The translations under genes and the position numbers were made by a program. This document shows positions 13,591 through 64,000 of a stretch of 64,000 nt of DNA, in pieces. The notes under the pieces were generated by a model. It was not told the DNA's origin. It did not search any database and worked only from the letters and a program-made list of their open reading frames with translations. Source of the stretch: Candidatus Aminicenantes bacterium (lineage in GTDB: Bacteria > Acidobacteriota > Aminicenantia > Aminicenantales > Aminicenantaceae); contig JASFPP010000001.1 in assembly GCA_050115915.1 (NCBI GenBank), positions 3,116-67,115 on the forward strand. The letters are read 5' to 3'. Positions within the stretch are counted from its first letter, which is position 1. Each line of letters opens with the position of its first letter.

Positions 13591-13801
13591 AAACTGTGAC
13601 GGTGATGAATCGCGTCGCGCTTTTGGAAGTTCCAATTGTGTGGTGGAGAAAACCGTATGGAGGGCCGGACGGGCATGGTACATCTCCCCAAGGGAGATGT
13701 GAGGGAGGCCCGGAATCGAGTGAAATTTCCTCGCTGGGGAAATTGAACGTGTTTTCGAAATCAACAATTGGAGCTTTCGGAAAGTCATTCATCACAGTTT
13801 T
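13591..13801 (+). repeat. T1 structured intergenic repeat, copy B (about 211 bp), oriented toward the B12-radical SAM gene
   Basis: Termini AAACTGTGAcggtgATGAAT (13591-) and ATTCATCACAGTTTT (-13801) are inverted repeats with a 5-nt bulge. Core 22-mer at 13635-13656. Perfect 9-bp hairpin ACATCTCCC-caa-GGGAGATGT at 13680-13700. Blocks shared with copies A and D. Confidence 0.8.
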
Positions 13802-24395: not shown

Positions 24396-25385
24396 TTATT
24401 CGGATGACGGATCTCGTTCAGAGTCAAAGATCTCCCGTACGAAATAGATCCTTTTGTCTACCGACTCGTGGTAGGCGCGGACCATGATCTCTGCCAAAAG
24501 CCCCAGAGTGATGAACTGGATCCCGATAACAATGAGCAATATGGCCAACAGCAGCAAGGGGCGTCCTGAGATGCCCACCTTGAGAATGAGACGCTGATAG
24601 GAGAGGTATAAGCCAATGAGGAATCCGACGATACCGCTGGCCAGCCCGAATACGCCGAATATCTGGAGAGGTCGTGTGGAATAACTCAAGAGAAATTTGA
24701 CTGTGAGAAGGTCGAGGATGACTTTGACGAACCGGAACACCGTGTATTTGGACTTTCCGTGCTTCCTTGGCCGGTGGTTAACTTCAACCTCAGCTATAGA
24801 AACCCCGATATTGCTGGCAATGGCTGGAATGAACCTGTGCAGCTCTCCGTAAAGATTGATGTTTTTGATGACCTCTTTTCGGAAAGCCTTCAGAGTGCAC
24901 CCAAAATCATGAAGCTTGATGTGCGTGATCTTGGAGATAAGCCAATTGGCCATGGCCGAGGGGATGCGACGTGTCAAAAGGCGGTCCTTTCTTTTTTTCC
25001 TCCATCCGCTGACAATATCGTAACCCTTGTGGATCTTTTCGAGAAGAAGAACGAAGTCTTGAGGATCATTCTGAAGGTCTGCATCCAAGGTGATGATCAC
25101 CTCTCCTTTGGCATAATCGAAACCAGCGGAAAGGGCTGCCGTTTGGCCGAAATTTTTTCTCAGCCGGATAACTTTCACCTTGGGATCCTCCTTTTGGATG
25201 CCCCGCAACACCGGAAAAGTCAAATCCCAGCTTCCGTCATCGACAAAAATGATCTCATAGGAGAGGTTCAGTCCTATTGAGGCTTTCGTGATCTCTTCAT
25301 AGAGGTCTGGCAGGTTTTTCTCCTCGTTAAAAACCGGCACTACGATGGAAAGTGCAAGAGGCTCCTTGGGATTCATTGCGGTCAA
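24396..25385 (-). CDS. GT2 polyprenyl-phosphate glycosyltransferase (paralog of 16137-17129)
   Basis: 329 aa. LSIVVPVFNEEKNL and DADLQNDP motifs. It shares the identical peptides RLRKNFGQTAAL and LYGELHRFIPA with the other GT2. TTG start at 25385, with an in-frame ATG at 25376. Confidence 0.85.
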   Translation of the reverse strand: MTAMNPKEPLALSIVVPVFNEEKNLPDLYEEITKASIGLNLSYEIIFVDDGSWDLTFPVLRGIQKEDPKVKVIRLRKNFGQTAALSAGFDYAKGEVIITLDADLQNDPQDFVLLLEKIHKGYDIVSGWRKKRKDRLLTRRIPSAMANWLISKITHIKLHDFGCTLKAFRKEVIKNINLYGELHRFIPAIASNIGVSIAEVEVNHRPRKHGKSKYTVFRFVKVILDLLTVKFLLSYSTRPLQIFGVFGLASGIVGFLIGLYLSYQRLILKVGISGRPLLLLAILLIVIGIQFITLGLLAEIMVRAYHESVDKRIYFVREIFDSERDPSSE

Positions 25386-25416
25386 TATATCACATTCACC
25401 ACTTTAACGTAAATAG

Positions 25417-25611
25417 GCTGAATTATTCATAAAAGTTGCTGCCAAATTCCTATTTAAAAAAATATTTCATTTCATATTGGCAGCATCTTTTACCTTACAG
25501 GCGAGCTGATTTTGCCGCATCTGCTTCGTTACGGCCCATTCGAAGTGGACGGCCACGTCTTCATACGCCGACGCCTTGCATCTGCGACAAACTCAACTCG
25601 TGAATAATCCA
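25417..25611 (-). repeat. T2 structured intergenic repeat, full copy F1 (about 195 bp), oriented toward the GT2 gene at 25385
   Basis: The reverse complement aligns with copy E. It shares the identical GGATTATTCACGAG (25597-25610 as reverse complement), TCGCCnnnARGGTAAAAG and CTTTTATGAWTAATTCAG. Internal hairpins are 25431-25445/25477-25491 (14 of 15 bp) and 25502-25519/25583-25600 (17 of 18 including 2 G-U on the minus-strand transcript). Confidence 0.75.
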
Positions 25612-25618
25612 TCCTTCG

Positions 25619-25690
25619 CCTGAATTATTCATAAAATCTGTGGTCAAATTCCTATACAAAAATCATTTCTTATCGATAGCATCTTTTACC
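25619..25690 (-). repeat. T2 repeat, partial tandem copy F2 (terminal palindrome plus degenerate P3 arm)
   Basis: CCTGAATTATTCATAAAA...ATCTTTTACC parallels F1 positions 25417-25494, including a similar loop (AAATTCCTAT..). The second hairpin and distal terminus are missing. Confidence 0.6.
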
Positions 25691-25697
25691 AGGGGAA

Positions 25698-25726
25698 TTG
25701 ACAACATTGGATTTATCCTCTAAAAT
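25698..25726 (+). promoter_or_regulatory. Sigma70-type promoter TTGACA-N17-TAAAAT for the receiver-domain gene / accD-folC unit
   Basis: TTGACA at 25698-25703 and TAAAAT at 25721-25726. A GAGGA Shine-Dalgarno sequence precedes the ATG at 25749. The promoter starts 8 nt after the T2-F2 copy. Confidence 0.5.
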
Positions 25727-25748: not shown

Positions 25749-26228
25749 ATGTCTGAAAAAAAGATATTAATCGTAGATTACGACGCAAAGAACCTCGAGC
25801 ACATGACAGAGCTTTTTGTCCCGCATAATCTTACTGTCGTCACTGCGAATGATGGACAGATGGCCTACGAGAAGTACCAGGAGGAGAAACCCGATCTGAT
25901 CGTACTCGAGGCCATGTTGCCCAAGCTCCACGGTTTTGATTTGACGCAAAAGATTCATAGCGAAACTAAGGGAAGCGTTCCCATCGTCATAGTGACGGGG
26001 CTTTACAAAGGGGCCCAATACAAGAATGAGGCGCTGCGGTCATTCGGCGCTGCGGACTATTTTGAAAAACCCTTCGATGACAACCAACTGGTCAGTTCTG
26101 TCATGAATCTCTTATCCGATGAGATCGATATCGAAGAGGACCTTCCGGACCCTGACACGGTCCTTTCCTATCTTTCTCAGATGTCCAAAAAAACCGCTTC
26201 TCCTTCAAAAGAGGAAAAAATCTCTTAA
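25749..26228 (+). CDS. Single-domain CheY-like receiver protein with Glu at the phospho-acceptor position (atypical/pseudo-receiver)
   Basis: 159 aa. The receiver fold is KILIVDYDAKN...DLIVLEAMLPKLHGFDL...IVIVTG...YFEKPF. The canonical DxxxLD(acceptor)xxMP reads LEAMLP here. Confidence 0.8.
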   Translation: MSEKKILIVDYDAKNLEHMTELFVPHNLTVVTANDGQMAYEKYQEEKPDLIVLEAMLPKLHGFDLTQKIHSETKGSVPIVIVTGLYKGAQYKNEALRSFGAADYFEKPFDDNQLVSSVMNLLSDEIDIEEDLPDPDTVLSYLSQMSKKTASPSKEEKIS

Positions 26229-26251
26229 AACCTCAATCATTCAAAAGGAAT

Positions 26252-27061
26252 ATGGATAATCCAGATAAAATGGCGAACCTGTGGACGCGTTGCAACAGTT
26301 GCCGTCGCATTCTCTATAAACAAGATATCCTGGACAACCTCTATGTCTGCCCTGAGTGCTTTTTCCATTTTCGCATGTCTGCGAAAGACCGCCTATCCAT
26401 ACTCTTTGATGAAGGAAGATATGAACTTTTCGATGAAGCCATCTCTCCAGAGGATCCTTTGAATTTCAAAGATCAGAAAGCCTATTCCAGCCGTCTTAAA
26501 GAGAACAAGGGAAAGACCTCGCTTCCCGATGCTGTGCTCAATGCCATCGGAACCATGGATGGCCTGAGTGTCGTTGTTTCAGCCATGGAGTTTTCCTTCA
26601 TGGGTGGGAGCATGGGATCTGTTGTGGGAGAGAAGATCACACGCGCGTTCGAGAAGGCTCTCTCGGAAAAGATTCCTGTTATCGTTATTTCCTGTTCAGG
26701 GGGGGCAAGGATGCAGGAGGGCGTTCTCTCCCTCATGCAGCTCATGAAAACAAGCGCAGCGGTCGCCAGACTCGATGATGCGGGGATTCCGTACATCTCT
26801 GTAATGACAGATCCCACAACGGGTGGAGTTACGGCGAGCTTCGCCATGCTGGGCGATATCAACATCGCAGAGCCAGATGCTCTCATCGGCTTTGCAGGGC
26901 CCCGAGTTATAGAGCAGACAATCAAGGAGAAATTGCCAAGGGACTTTCAACGCTCTGAATTCTTGCTCAGCCACGGCATGCTCGATGAAGTTGTTAAGCG
27001 CCTCCACCTGCGAGACTATCTCATCCGGGCGCTCAGGCTTTTCCTCGACAAACCTCAATGA
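26252..27061 (+). CDS. accD: Acetyl-CoA carboxylase carboxyltransferase subunit beta
   Basis: 269 aa. N-terminal zinc ribbon CNSCRRILY...CPECFFHFRMSAKDRL, plus GGSMG and GGARMQEG motifs. Confidence 0.9.
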   Translation: MDNPDKMANLWTRCNSCRRILYKQDILDNLYVCPECFFHFRMSAKDRLSILFDEGRYELFDEAISPEDPLNFKDQKAYSSRLKENKGKTSLPDAVLNAIGTMDGLSVVVSAMEFSFMGGSMGSVVGEKITRAFEKALSEKIPVIVISCSGGARMQEGVLSLMQLMKTSAAVARLDDAGIPYISVMTDPTTGGVTASFAMLGDINIAEPDALIGFAGPRVIEQTIKEKLPRDFQRSEFLLSHGMLDEVVKRLHLRDYLIRALRLFLDKPQ

Positions 27062-28377
27062 ATTATGAGCAATGCCTCGTTTATCTGGACCAGATACAGA
27101 ACCTGGGCATAAAATTCGGGCTGGATAATGTTCAAACGATCCTGTCCGCCTTGAACAATCCCCAGAATCATTATCCTTCGGTTCACGTGGCCGGGACCAA
27201 CGGAAAAGGCTCGGTGTGTGCCATGCTGAGTTTTATCCTCATGGAACACGGCCTCCGTCCTGGACTCTTTACTTCCCCCCATCTTGTGACTGTGCGGGAG
27301 CGCATCCAGATAGCAGGAGAGCCCATCTCCAAAGAGGATTTTAGCCGGCTTCTTACCGTCCTTAGGGATGTGATCGAAGAGCTTATCGCCTCGCAGGTGC
27401 TGTTGGCCCCACCTACATATTTCGAGATGTTGAGCTGCCTGGCCTTTCTGTATTTTGCCGAAGTGCAGACAGATATCGCCATATTGGAAGTGGGGATGGG
27501 AGGGCGGTTCGACGCCACGAACGTTGTTGTACCCGTAGTTGCGGCTATTACCACCATCTCTCCCGAGCATCAGAAGTTTCTCGGTGAGACTCCAAGCGAG
27601 ATCGCTTCGGAAAAGGCCGGGATCATCAAGCCCGGCGTCCCTCTGGTATGTGGAGTCGAAGAGAAGGACGCGTATAAAACCATAAAGAATAAGGCGAAGG
27701 AACAGAATGCTCCTTTCCATCCGGTGTTTGCCAAAGACAAAGATCTAAAGAAGACAAAAACCGGCCGGAACTTCCGGTTTGTGTACAGATCGGGGCGAGA
27801 GGAATACGCGTTCGCGCCCTCTATGCTCGGAGAACACCAGGGAAAAAATGGGGCCATCGCCATTGCTGTGGCGCATAGACTATCCAAAGATTGGAGGCCA
27901 TTGGAAAGATCGCGGATTATCCGGGGAATCGATGCGGCCTATTGGCCTGGTCGTCTTGAGGTTGTATCCGATAGACCTCTTGTCCTTGTCGATGGCGCAC
28001 ACAATGAGGAGGGAGCGAAGGCTCTGAAAGCTTACGTCCAGGAGTTCATCTCTTTACCCTGCGTGCTTGTCTTCGCGGTCATGAGAGATAAGGACATCGC
28101 TAAACTGTCCGAGATTCTCTTTCCCCTGGCTGACAAGGTGATTTGCACCAGGTTTCCTTACTTCAAGGCCGCTTCACCCGAAGATATCCAAAAACAGGCC
28201 TCTCGATTTGAAGGCCGGATTGTTGTCGAACCGGATGTGGAGAAGGCAGTCAGGGCCGCTCTTCAAGCCGCAAAATCCGAGGGCACTGTCCTTGTGGCGG
28301 GATCCCTCTTTCTCGTCGGCGAGATCAAGAGAATATTTGCAGGCCATGCGGACATTTCCCAATCAGTGCTGTCATAG
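27058..28377 (+). CDS. folC: Bifunctional folylpolyglutamate synthase / dihydrofolate synthase
   Basis: 439 aa. P-loop VHVAGTNGKGS. Mur-ligase family layout. ATGA overlap with accD; accD-folC linkage is known from E. coli. Confidence 0.9.
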   Translation: MNYEQCLVYLDQIQNLGIKFGLDNVQTILSALNNPQNHYPSVHVAGTNGKGSVCAMLSFILMEHGLRPGLFTSPHLVTVRERIQIAGEPISKEDFSRLLTVLRDVIEELIASQVLLAPPTYFEMLSCLAFLYFAEVQTDIAILEVGMGGRFDATNVVVPVVAAITTISPEHQKFLGETPSEIASEKAGIIKPGVPLVCGVEEKDAYKTIKNKAKEQNAPFHPVFAKDKDLKKTKTGRNFRFVYRSGREEYAFAPSMLGEHQGKNGAIAIAVAHRLSKDWRPLERSRIIRGIDAAYWPGRLEVVSDRPLVLVDGAHNEEGAKALKAYVQEFISLPCVLVFAVMRDKDIAKLSEILFPLADKVICTRFPYFKAASPEDIQKQASRFEGRIVVEPDVEKAVRAALQAAKSEGTVLVAGSLFLVGEIKRIFAGHADISQSVLS

Positions 28378-28386
28378 ATCCATGCA

Positions 28387-28542
28387 CGCGGTACGGGATG
28401 TCCTCATTGTTTAATGGAGAAAACCGTTTGAAGGGATAAACGGGCGCGTGGCGTCGCCCATGGGAGGTGCCCCATGTTTGAAGGAAGTTACTTCGCAGGG
28501 GAAAGGGATCGGAATTTCGTTTTCGATATCATACTACAGGGG
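28387..28542 (+). repeat. T1 structured intergenic repeat, copy D (shorter, about 156 bp), oriented toward the atp operon
   Basis: ATTGTTTAATGGAGAAAACCGT (18 of 22 match to the A/B core), CTTCGCAGGGGAAAGG and CGTTTTCGATATCA blocks occur in the same order as in A and B. The termini are degenerate, so the boundaries are approximate. Confidence 0.6.
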
Positions 28543-62969: not shown

Positions 62970-63668
62970 GTGACTGATTCAGCTAGAAGATACAGAGTGG
63001 TGGAGGCGTTCCAGCGGATCCCTTCGCTTGTCCATGGTTTCGGGACCCGATATTGGGGGGAGGACGGTTTGAATTCATGTCCGGAGCTGGCCGGCTTTCG
63101 CCATGTTTCCCTCTGTCAGACTCACTCCGATATCGTCCACACCATCACAAGATATCCCCATGATAAGATGGAGGGGGATGCGCTCGTAACAGACCGTCCG
63201 GGCATCCTCCTCAACATAAAGACCGCCGATTGCCTTCCTGTGTTGGTCGTGGATCCTCAAAGGAGAGTTGTCGCTGCGGTCCATTGTGGTTGGAGAGGAA
63301 CCCTGAAGAACGTCATCGCTGAAACGCTCCGGACGATCATACAGAATTTTGGCAGCGACGTGTCATCTCTTCGTGTTGCCCTAGGGCCTTGTATAGACAA
63401 GTCTTGCTATGAGGTTGGGGAGGATGTGAGAGAACGATTTGAACGCTACGGAATTTCCAATGGAAATTTTAACCGCCATCCTTTCAAACGAGAGAAATAT
63501 TTATTCGATCTCAGAGGGACTAATCGGGCTCAGATCCTCGAGATGGGTGTCCCTCGAGAACAAATTTTTTCGGTTGACCTCTGCACGTACTGTGAAAAGG
63601 ACCTGTTCTCCTACAGAAGAGATAAGGCCCATGCAGGACGATTGATCAACTTTATTGGCCTATCGTAA
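62970..63668 (+). CDS. pgeF: Peptidoglycan editing factor PgeF (YfiH/DUF152, laccase-domain family)
   Basis: 232 aa. SLVHGFGTR, QTHSD and AAVHCGWRGT motifs. GTG start. Confidence 0.9.
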   Translation: MTDSARRYRVVEAFQRIPSLVHGFGTRYWGEDGLNSCPELAGFRHVSLCQTHSDIVHTITRYPHDKMEGDALVTDRPGILLNIKTADCLPVLVVDPQRRVVAAVHCGWRGTLKNVIAETLRTIIQNFGSDVSSLRVALGPCIDKSCYEVGEDVRERFERYGISNGNFNRHPFKREKYLFDLRGTNRAQILEMGVPREQIFSVDLCTYCEKDLFSYRRDKAHAGRLINFIGLS

Positions 63669-63670
63669 TC

Positions 63671-63899
63671 TCCTGGATTATTCACGAGCCGAGGCCAACC
63701 CACCCCACCCATTCACAAAGGTAGAGGCAGTGGCTTCCGAAGCAGCAGTGAACTACCACGAGGGGGCTACAACGAAGGCTTTGTAGTGAGATCGGTTCGC
63801 CCGAAGGGTAAAAGAAGCTAACAACAGGATGGGGAGTTTTCCTTTCAGATAAGTCTTTCTTAAATATATTTGTTAGCTTCTTTTATGATTAATTCAGGA
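63671..63899 (+). repeat. T2 structured intergenic repeat, full copy E (about 229 bp), oriented toward the gene starting at 63950
   Basis: The termini CCTGGATTATTCA / TGATTAATTCAGG pair (12 of 13 including 1 G-U). Perfect 14-bp hairpin AAAAGAAGCTAACA (63810-63823) / TGTTAGCTTCTTTT (63871-63884). Basal stem CGAGCCGA (63685-63692) / TCGGTTCG (63792-63799). Junction sequences are conserved with copy F1. Confidence 0.75.
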
Positions 63900-63920: not shown

Positions 63921-64000
63921 AAGGTATTTTTTCTTATCCTAGGGCTACTATGAAAAACACTTATTCAGAGATTGTGCTGCCGGATTTTCCGTTGTTTAAA

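Follow-up and report, generated by a model that had tools for sequence, protein, structure and literature searches.

The window analyzed here is a 64,000-nt stretch of the genome of a Candidatus Aminicenantes bacterium (GenBank assembly GCA_050115915.1, contig JASFPP010000001.1, positions 3,116 to 67,115). It contains a spacer between two divergent genes that is filled mainly by two repeat copies, F1 and F2. We give a probability of roughly 60% that F1 and F2 are copies of a non-autonomous mobile repeat, similar to miniature inverted-repeat transposable elements (MITEs), located between two pre-existing divergent promoters. Mostly, this is the ordinary insertion of a MITE-like structured intergenic repeat, in this case specific to Aminicenantes. 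The element has terminal inverted repeats, is found only between genes, is present or absent at orthologous sites and forms a four-way junction with compensatory changes on one strand. Aminicenantes genomes carry this repeat in high copy number, and we found no description of it; a full-text literature search returned no paper joining Aminicenantes and miniature inverted-repeat elements. It would be a mistake to interpret the repeat-filled spacer as promoter architecture.

The features of the locus, together with a third copy elsewhere in the window, are as follows.

24396–25376, minus strand: GT2 glycosyltransferase gene (Pfam Glycos_transf_2, 1.5e-33; list of open reading frames, ORFs)
25384–25413, minus strand: GT2 promoter-like site from the consensus scan, with −35 TTTACG (25413–25408), an 18-nt spacer with upstream TG and −10 TATATT (25389–25384)
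25417–25611, minus strand: F1, an intact member of the family (191 bits and E 5.6e-56 in the covariance model); it folds as the reverse complement of the written sequence
25417–25429: left terminal inverted repeat of F1, GCTGAATTATTCA (family consensus CCTGAATTATTCA), pairing with 25601–25613
25430–25492: F1 hairpin adjoining the left terminus (inverted repeat I1), arms TAAAAGTTGCTGCCAA and TTGGCAGCATCTTTTA, 31-nt AT-rich loop
25601–25611: right terminal inverted repeat of F1, TGAATAATCCA (inverted-repeat pairing, alignment and fold)
25612–25618: junction spacer TCCTTCG, 7 nt and pyrimidine-rich, from the F1 right terminus to the F2 left terminus
25619–25690, minus strand: F2, a truncated and decayed copy holding the left terminus and hairpin region and ending in TTTTACC (covariance model 34 bits)
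25698–25726, plus strand: receiver promoter-like site TTGACA-N17-TAAAAT (consensus scan, 11/12)
25749–26228, plus strand: single-domain response-regulator (receiver) gene, ATG at 25749 (Pfam Response_reg, 1.6e-21)
63673–63898, plus strand (folding strand): third copy, full, in opposite orientation and with an extra inserted module (covariance model 111 bits)

The original prediction had delimited F1, the 7 nt that follow, F2, the intergenic spacer and both promoter sites, and these coordinates are correct to the base. The spacer measures 363 nt from TTG 25385 of the GT2 gene and 372 nt from ATG 25376; 274 of the 363 nt are repeat.

The orthologous spacers provide the first line of evidence. 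The gene order, GT4–GT2 on one strand and receiver–accD–folC on the other, is conserved in relatives, and the spacer in these conserved-synteny relatives ranges from 113 to 372 nt. Its contents vary as follows.

Window and L002, 100% nucleotide identity: F1 and F2
L004, 98.7% nucleotide identity (98.66%): F2 only; the GT2-side flank ...CGTAAATAGG joins straight to TTGAATTATTCATAAAATCTG
L001, 97.2% nucleotide identity (97.15%): F1 and F2
P0001 locus, 97% amino acid identity: 169 nt, F2-only size (judged by length alone)
P0002 locus, 93% amino acid identity: 113 nt, repeat-free size (judged by length alone)
L135, 92% amino acid identity: one copy, truncated inside the long arm
L136–L138, 92% amino acid identity: one full, decayed copy
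L133, 90% amino acid identity: no repeat, 118 nt (by sequence)
L130, L131, L132 and L134, 87–91% amino acid identity: one full copy

The TTTACG/TATATT and TTGACA/TAAAAT pairs, together with their surroundings, are kept in every orthologous spacer sequenced, with or without a repeat (L133, L135, L130–L132, L134, L136 and L004). About 32 nt separate the two −35 boxes in the repeat-free L133, versus about 285 nt in the window. Since these hexamer pairs are kept whatever the spacer holds, both promoters are to be taken, on this comparison, as flank sequence older than the repeats, neither built from them nor dependent on them, and a regulatory role of the repeat is unsupported. The repeats appear to occupy the gap between back-to-back core promoters, where an insertion breaks nothing, and their effect on expression is probably small.

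The original prediction had placed the repeat at the positions where upstream regulators of both transcripts would bind. Its geometry holds: 4 nt separate F1 from the GT2 −35 box, and 7 nt lie between the end of F2 and the −35 box of the receiver gene. The regulatory role does not hold, since the promoters are the same in repeat-free and variable orthologs; at the level of sequence, this is the outcome that the prediction itself had named as speaking against it. A stronger form of this idea, in which the repeats regulate one or both divergent promoters from upstream, through binding sites or DNA bending, and the layout of 1.4 copies is kept to tune expression, is in our judgement very improbable. 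The closeness of both copies to the −35 boxes agrees with it, the AT-rich hairpin loops could bend DNA, and the same site is occupied by a repeat in most relatives at 87–92% receiver identity. However, neither promoters nor flanks change among spacers that lack the repeat, hold a truncated or a single copy or retain only F2, and F1 is missing in a strain only 1.3% divergent. F2 is decayed and without a fold, and the copies of the relatives belong to another subfamily with other inserted modules, so no specific sequence is kept here.

The history of the locus can be read from the same alignments. L004 lacks exactly F1 and the junction spacer, 202 nt in total, with the loss falling between the identical 17-nt left ends CTGAATTATTCATAAAA. 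The F1-less allele is present in the metagenomes ERZ23498360 and JGI 3300042731, the window strain in JGI 3300035144 and SRR11699225. Because L004 is closer to the window than L001 is (L004 and L001 share 97.03% identity), yet the window and L001 both have F1, these sequences are most parsimoniously explained if the L004 lineage lost one 202-nt period. In L001, five clustered changes within 12 nt make the F2 segment AAAAGTTGCGGCC identical to that of F1, and we interpret this cluster as a gene-conversion tract from F1 to F2. All filled orthologous sites share the left junction CGTAAATAG(G/C)C|TGAATT. The copies of the relatives have one hairpin-loop type (AAATTTATATTTtAAAAGC) and one core type, whereas F1 and F2 have another loop type (AAATTCCTAT...) and the F1 core is of a different subfamily. 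Judging from these differences in loop type and core, the interior of the repeat has been replaced over time, through re-insertion or through conversion by other copies.

F2 shares 79% identity with F1 across 77 nt, the first 77 nt of F1 (E 3.6e-8 in the window), and has no stable fold (−9.3 kcal/mol, z +0.46). It contains only the left terminus and the hairpin region, so its description as a partial copy with a decayed stem was right. Beyond the F2 end at 25690, AGGGGAATTGACA aligns with the flank ATAGGGATTTGACA of the orthologous L134, and the deletion in F2 would thus have removed the remainder of the element along with about 8 nt of flank. The truncated copy in L135 has a similar deletion, its right end point about 5 nt outside the former right terminus. 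An extension of F2 to 25731, proposed by the covariance-model alignment, was rejected: TGGATTTATCC is conserved flank that is also present in the repeat-free L133. The view that local duplication or recombination, rather than simple insertion, lies behind the partial tandem copy is supported by the 202-nt loss in L004, the conversion in L001, the lack of a target-site duplication around F1 and the presence of the same layout in about one third of the family.

The family is widespread in this lineage. We scanned species-representative genomes, one per species, with an exact pattern that combined the left terminus with the 3′ arm of the neighbouring hairpin. At least 110 loci were found, and all except one chance match are in 15 Aminicenantes-type metagenome-assembled genomes (MAGs), with up to 23 loci per MAG among the matches listed. 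Many loci lie at true contig ends, as would be expected of a repeat that interrupts assemblies, which is also of practical concern for MAGs. The MAGs are labelled Aminicenantes, Aminicenantaceae or, in the case of some third-party assemblies, ‘uncultured Eubacteriales’. MAGs with the last label (CAYOSH, CAZXJE, CAZSGR, CAZIMJ and CAYFVQ; loci L020, L025–L027, L029, L041 and others) carry dozens of copies. This label is probably wrong, as the repeat otherwise appears only in Aminicenantes. From the loci 118 copies were extracted, 75 of them with a recognizable right terminus 185–240 nt downstream, and the covariance model identifies about 95 full-length copies in 629 kb of repeat loci. The same model finds no family members in the window other than F1, F2 and the third copy, and the 17-nt left terminus accordingly occurs three times there versus 0.35 expected by chance.

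A typical copy is about 195 nt long (range 185–245 nt). The terminal inverted repeats of 13 nt, CCTGAATTATTCA ... TGAATAATCCAGG, have 11 paired positions, and their cores are invariant in an alignment of 32 copies, with TGAATTATTCA as the left-terminus core. In the orientation of F1 as written, the parts follow each other in this order.

Part 1: left terminus (CC)TGAATTATTCATAAAA
Part 2: hairpin with a 30–50-nt AT-rich loop, its arms variable among copies yet complementary
Part 3: ATCTTTTACC, then the mini-hairpin CCCTTCGGG
Part 4: long arm, about 100 nt
Part 5: right terminus CTCGTGAATAATCCA(GG)

In addition to this basic form, short forms consist of the left terminus, hairpin and right terminus only and form a single long hairpin (L034, L038 and L075). 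Optional modules sit in the long arm (63700–63745 in the window; L111, L055, L117, L122, L131 and L134), where they would turn the long-arm helix into separate hairpins. They include the complementary pair CGCCGACCCAACCTAACCC / GGGTTAGGTTGGGTCGGC and also the hairpin module CCACCTTAATGTTAGGGTGGGGTGGGTTGGCC, of which the third copy of the window has a version. This third copy lies between a gene stopping at 63668 and a gene starting at 63950. It is only about 60–65% identical to F1, with the same layout, and its fold reaches −71 kcal/mol (z −2.65). The hairpin arms of the two copies differ in a compensatory manner, with GCTGCCAA/TTGGCAGC in F1 versus GCTAACAA/TTGTTAGC in the third copy.

A second repeat family has the same left terminus followed by CCTGAATTATTCATAAAAAATGTCGAT... 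and a different interior (L027, L040, L056, L076, L102, L112 and others). The shared terminus suggests several non-autonomous families served by one enzyme.

The element is non-coding. Reading frames are not conserved, indels and inserted modules are not multiples of three, and a small-protein reading was dropped, as the frames differ among copies (19 aa versus 27 aa, with indels). Blastn of F1 and F2 against plasmids and phages gave no match. The 18-nt left terminus has 15 matches in viral contigs, all of which are chance matches in AT-rich phage coding sequence.

The fold of the element is strongly specific to one strand. The consensus fold from the 32 basic-length copies has −25.1 kcal/mol and 41 pairs as written (the F1 strand), while the reverse complement has −71.3 kcal/mol and 59 pairs, of which 28 are compensatory. 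A standard pair is formed in 97.7% of the alignment cells, versus 34–41% in slid controls where the partner columns were moved by 1–3, and none of 500 shuffles reaches any of five measures. Single copies have a mean minimum free energy (MFE) of −79.0 kcal/mol on the folding strand versus −53.9 kcal/mol on the other. F1 itself has an MFE of −77.8 kcal/mol (z −8.1) on the minus strand versus −56.4 kcal/mol on the plus strand and takes the four-way junction of the family. This junction, without unpaired linkers, joins the terminal helix made of both termini, the three-segment long arm, the 3-bp mini-hairpin and the hairpin with the AT-rich loop. The last of these corresponds to inverted repeat I1 of F1 (16 nt, 94% complementary), and in its helix (helix 6) 6 of 13 pairs are compensatory among copies. 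For F1 and F2, the folding strand corresponds to the minus strand of the window; for the third copy, it corresponds to the plus strand. G·U occupies 178 paired cells on the folding strand versus 11 for A·C, with G·U ahead in 28 pair columns and A·C in 2. Because G·U far exceeds A·C at the paired positions, we conclude from the alignment that selection acts on the single-stranded form of one strand in particular. With DNA energy parameters, the predicted junction (z −8.3) and the order of the strands (−44.4 versus −35.7 kcal/mol) stay the same, so energy cannot tell RNA from single-stranded DNA. Loops of the C(UUCG)G type on the plus strand were considered as a mark of the RNA strand and dropped, since the other strand folds far better.

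Based on this fold, the family could be mainly a structured RNA, transcribed from the folding strand and with the four-way junction as its functional part; it might act within neighbouring mRNAs, as a leader or by stabilizing them, or as a small RNA, and mobility would be secondary. We regard this as unlikely. The strand difference in consensus and single-copy energies fits it well, as does the tolerance of wobble pairs nearly like Watson–Crick pairs, and a covarying structure on one strand is what would be generally expected of such an RNA. In both full copies of the window, the folding strand runs in the direction of the next gene downstream, at distances of 41 and 51 nt from the start codon. 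Across the family 19 contexts are co-directional versus 10 anti-directional, and fragments with the 3′ end of the folding strand persist before start codons, for example that of accD in L130 and L135. On the other hand, this excess (19 to 10) lacks statistical significance, and among 48 copies 10 run antisense to the genes on both sides. Rfam gives no match in the window at gathering thresholds, and only chance-level matches at E up to 10 on two copies (F1/F2 and L111). The consensus scan reveals no promoter or terminator inside or beside F1 and F2 apart from the two gene promoters, and none at a fixed position within or next to the family element; a tRNA and tmRNA search was also negative. 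Since the GT2 promoter-like site lies between F1 and GT2, the folding strand of F1 would be outside an mRNA started at that site. Moreover, the element is dispensable at the locus (L133 and L004), and single-stranded DNA yields the same fold and strand order.

Another reading is mobility as single-stranded DNA through an HUH-type enzyme, as in REPIN/RAYT or IS200/IS605-like systems, with the fold as the recognition feature of the enzyme. The covarying fold on one strand and the junction predicted with DNA parameters agree with such a mechanism. The single-hairpin short forms resemble doublets of repetitive extragenic palindromes (REPs), and the copies cluster; such clustering, like tandem arrangement, is typical of REP/BIME arrays. 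Long persistence at some orthologous sites is also shared with REPIN/RAYT and IS200/IS605-derived elements. Unlike those, however, the Aminicenantes repeat has true terminal inverted repeats and occasional short flank duplications, while to our knowledge IS200/IS605-type elements have neither. It also lacks the unit of a conserved 5′ tetranucleotide and REP hairpin. No Y1-transposase-like gene (RAYT or TnpA) was seen beside any copy, with ORFs judged by eye from translations and no profile-library run. The two full window copies are oppositely oriented under a uniform GC skew, which speaks against a strict replication-strand bias, though with only two copies. Overall, we consider the HUH mechanism quite improbable.

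To a similar degree doubtful is the reading in which the linker-free four-way junction is the working unit of a mobile structured RNA or single-stranded DNA and the layout of 1.4 copies is a functional two-state arrangement instead of debris. In one form, the junction would be an RNA partner or guide for a putative recombinase; in the other, a leader whose terminal helix switches partners when a second left terminus lies just upstream. Taken together, a mobile structured RNA or single-stranded DNA element retains a small but appreciable share of the probability, because the fold conservation in a transposon-like repeat, and the mobilizing enzyme, lack an explanation. The unusually clean one-strand covariation makes this mobile repeat a good test case for selection on RNA versus single-stranded DNA.

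Returning to the MITE-like repeat, its properties as a mobile element are clear in several respects. It is short and non-coding, has terminal inverted repeats and many dispersed copies, and is present or absent at orthologous sites. All copies are intergenic, 19 of them co-directional with their neighbours, 10 divergent, 10 antisense to both and 9 convergent; a strict rule of orientation relative to genes was not found over these four contexts. The flanks follow the profile yTAAcC|TGAATT ... CCA|GGyTAA, and in about 25 copies the TAA stop codon of a neighbouring gene lies 2 nt from the left terminus. Identical flanking 4-mers are found in 6 of 37 copies versus 2.0 expected (P about 0.005), with GTAA, TAAA and ATTT as non-palindromic cases. 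This is weak but real support for a short target duplication. The left flanks (143 left termini) are also depleted of G, at most 0.14 per position and for at least 14 nt outward, while the right flank has no G bias beyond GGyTAA. Either the element extends to the left past the inverted repeat, or insertion favours G-poor sequence there.

Several observations weigh against a MITE-like repeat. A target-site duplication is lacking in 31 of the 37 copies and also at F1, whose spacer TCCTTCGCC matches the left flank TAAATAGGC at only 4 of 9 positions. A transposase gene bounded by these termini was not found in about 760 kb of Aminicenantes DNA, and no autonomous element with the same termini and a transposase is present among terminus pairs 300–5000 nt apart; these pairs, as well as the ORFs beside solo termini, are ordinary genes, although MAGs often miss insertion sequence (IS) copies. 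The excess of G·U over A·C on one strand suggests selection on a single-stranded form, which the MITE model leaves unexplained, and a plain DDE-type MITE needs no internal fold. Finally, all filled orthologous sites have one exact left junction despite the difference in subfamily between F1/F2 and the copies of the relatives. This combination needs concerted evolution or repeated insertion at one nucleotide.

The tandem layout is not peculiar to this locus. In 25–30 of the 75 full copies a second left terminus follows after 2–10 nt, usually 7–9 nt and pyrimidine-rich, and 27 of about 139 left termini lie at most 22 nt downstream of a right terminus. From about 17 nt up to a whole second copy follows the second left terminus. 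The intact copy of a tandem pair is always upstream, in the orientation of F1 as written. For 8 of 26 fragments the variable hairpin arm is at least 80% identical to that of the neighbour (100% in five of the eight), and on the sequence identity these pairs arose by local duplication or conversion. In the other pairs, the fragment has no relation to its neighbour or comes from another terminus-sharing family, as sometimes the second family described above, and they would be two elements side by side. The junction spacers resemble the left flank of the full copy, with 115 matches in 241 positions versus 90.6±6.1 in 5000 shuffles. Exact 7-nt duplications occur at the junctions of L051, L103 and L104, and L098 matches at 6 of 7 positions. 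Two other ideas about the junction were rejected. The spacer does not travel with the element, as spacer similarity is independent of core similarity (Mantel r −0.15, P 0.89). A tyrosine-recombinase core site of the lox/FRT/dif/attC type at the right–left junction would have the 11-nt arms that are present, but the spacer varies from 2 to 10 nt. In the MAG JASFEP01 (D0606M12metaG_Bin_51; L038, L051, L098 and L104), several tandem pairs have 100% identical hairpin arms and 7-nt flank duplications, and L098 has two full copies and a third, decayed left terminus. Tandem copying thus looks recent and active in this MAG.

A mechanism can be proposed for this layout. A transposase acting in trans would recognize the termini and place the element into yTAA-like sites, producing a short duplication. 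Often a new copy would land, or be copied, immediately next to the left end of one already present, leaving a full copy, 5–9 nt and a left-end fragment. At the present locus, the same process or recombination with another such locus may have given F1 and F2. Sharing a 17-nt direct repeat, the two left ends would then allow both the gene conversion in L001 and the precise 202-nt loss in L004. A tendency of the mobilizing enzyme to insert or copy elements next to a left terminus already in place, followed by recombination of the resulting direct repeats, would be the simplest reading.

Among known systems, bacterial MITEs and structured repeats (Correia/NEMIS in Neisseria, ERIC in enterobacteria, RUP and BOX in pneumococci, bcr1 in Bacillus) are similar to the Aminicenantes repeat in many respects. 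Both are small (about 195 nt here) and non-coding, have terminal inverted repeats, dispersed intergenic copies and presence/absence among strains, and share a stable predicted fold, modular insertions, short deletion forms and sites close to promoters or stop codons. Unlike these MITEs, the repeat has no sequence relation to known elements in Rfam or in blastn of plasmids and phages and is found in a different phylum, and its fold is a linker-free four-way junction, strongly specific to one strand, not one long hairpin.

IS1380/piggyBac-type termini have 5′-CC...GG-3′ ends and AT-rich duplications of 4–5 bp or TTAA. The Aminicenantes repeat is similar to these general features in its CC...GG ends, its TTAA/CTAA/TAAA flanks and a few 4–7-nt duplications. 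In contrast, most of its copies have no duplication and no transposase was found, so this similarity serves as a lead only.

The junctions themselves recall the abutted ends of IS circles and dimers (IS3/IS911, IS30, IS21 and IS256) and the insertion of IS30 beside its own inverted repeats. Right and left termini of the Aminicenantes repeat face each other across 5–9 nt, recent spacers equal the flank just outside the left end (L051, L103 and L104), and deletion end points lie 5–8 nt outside the former right terminus. Unlike the IS junctions, those of the repeat are fixed in the chromosome, the downstream copy is usually truncated or of another family, the spacer varies from 2 to 10 nt, and no enzyme or circle was observed.

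For the neighbouring genes, the GT2 start is likely ATG 25376 and not the in-frame TTG 25385, because the orthologs are called at 326 aa, which matches the ATG. The GT2 promoter-like site scores 9/12, and its −10 box ends 7 nt ahead of ATG 25376 without a Shine–Dalgarno sequence in between, a layout kept in all orthologs. Given this short distance without a Shine–Dalgarno sequence, the GT2 mRNA may be leaderless. Downstream of the receiver gene are accD and then a folC-like gene. At 26250–26270 of the window, ATGGATAATCCAGATAAA, read as codons 1 to 6 of the accD ORF (26252), resembles a left-terminus remnant that has decayed. L130 and L135 have ...TATCGGnAGTTTTTATGAATAAT(T/C)CAGGTTAGA(A/G)AATATG at the same place, directly upstream of accD. 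By comparison with L131 and L133, the true accD start is probably ATG 26270 (ATGGCGAACCTGTGG). The repeat can in this way add false codons to gene calls, while its natural presence or absence provides markers among close strains.

Outside this family, a direct repeat of 59 nt with 71% identity is found at 13616–13674 and 28387–28445 of the window (CGCG..TTGG.AGTTCC.ATTGT...GGAGAAAACCGT.TG.AGGG...ACGGGC), the second copy just past the stop of the folC-like gene at 28377. The two copies may represent a further repeat family or a conserved RNA.

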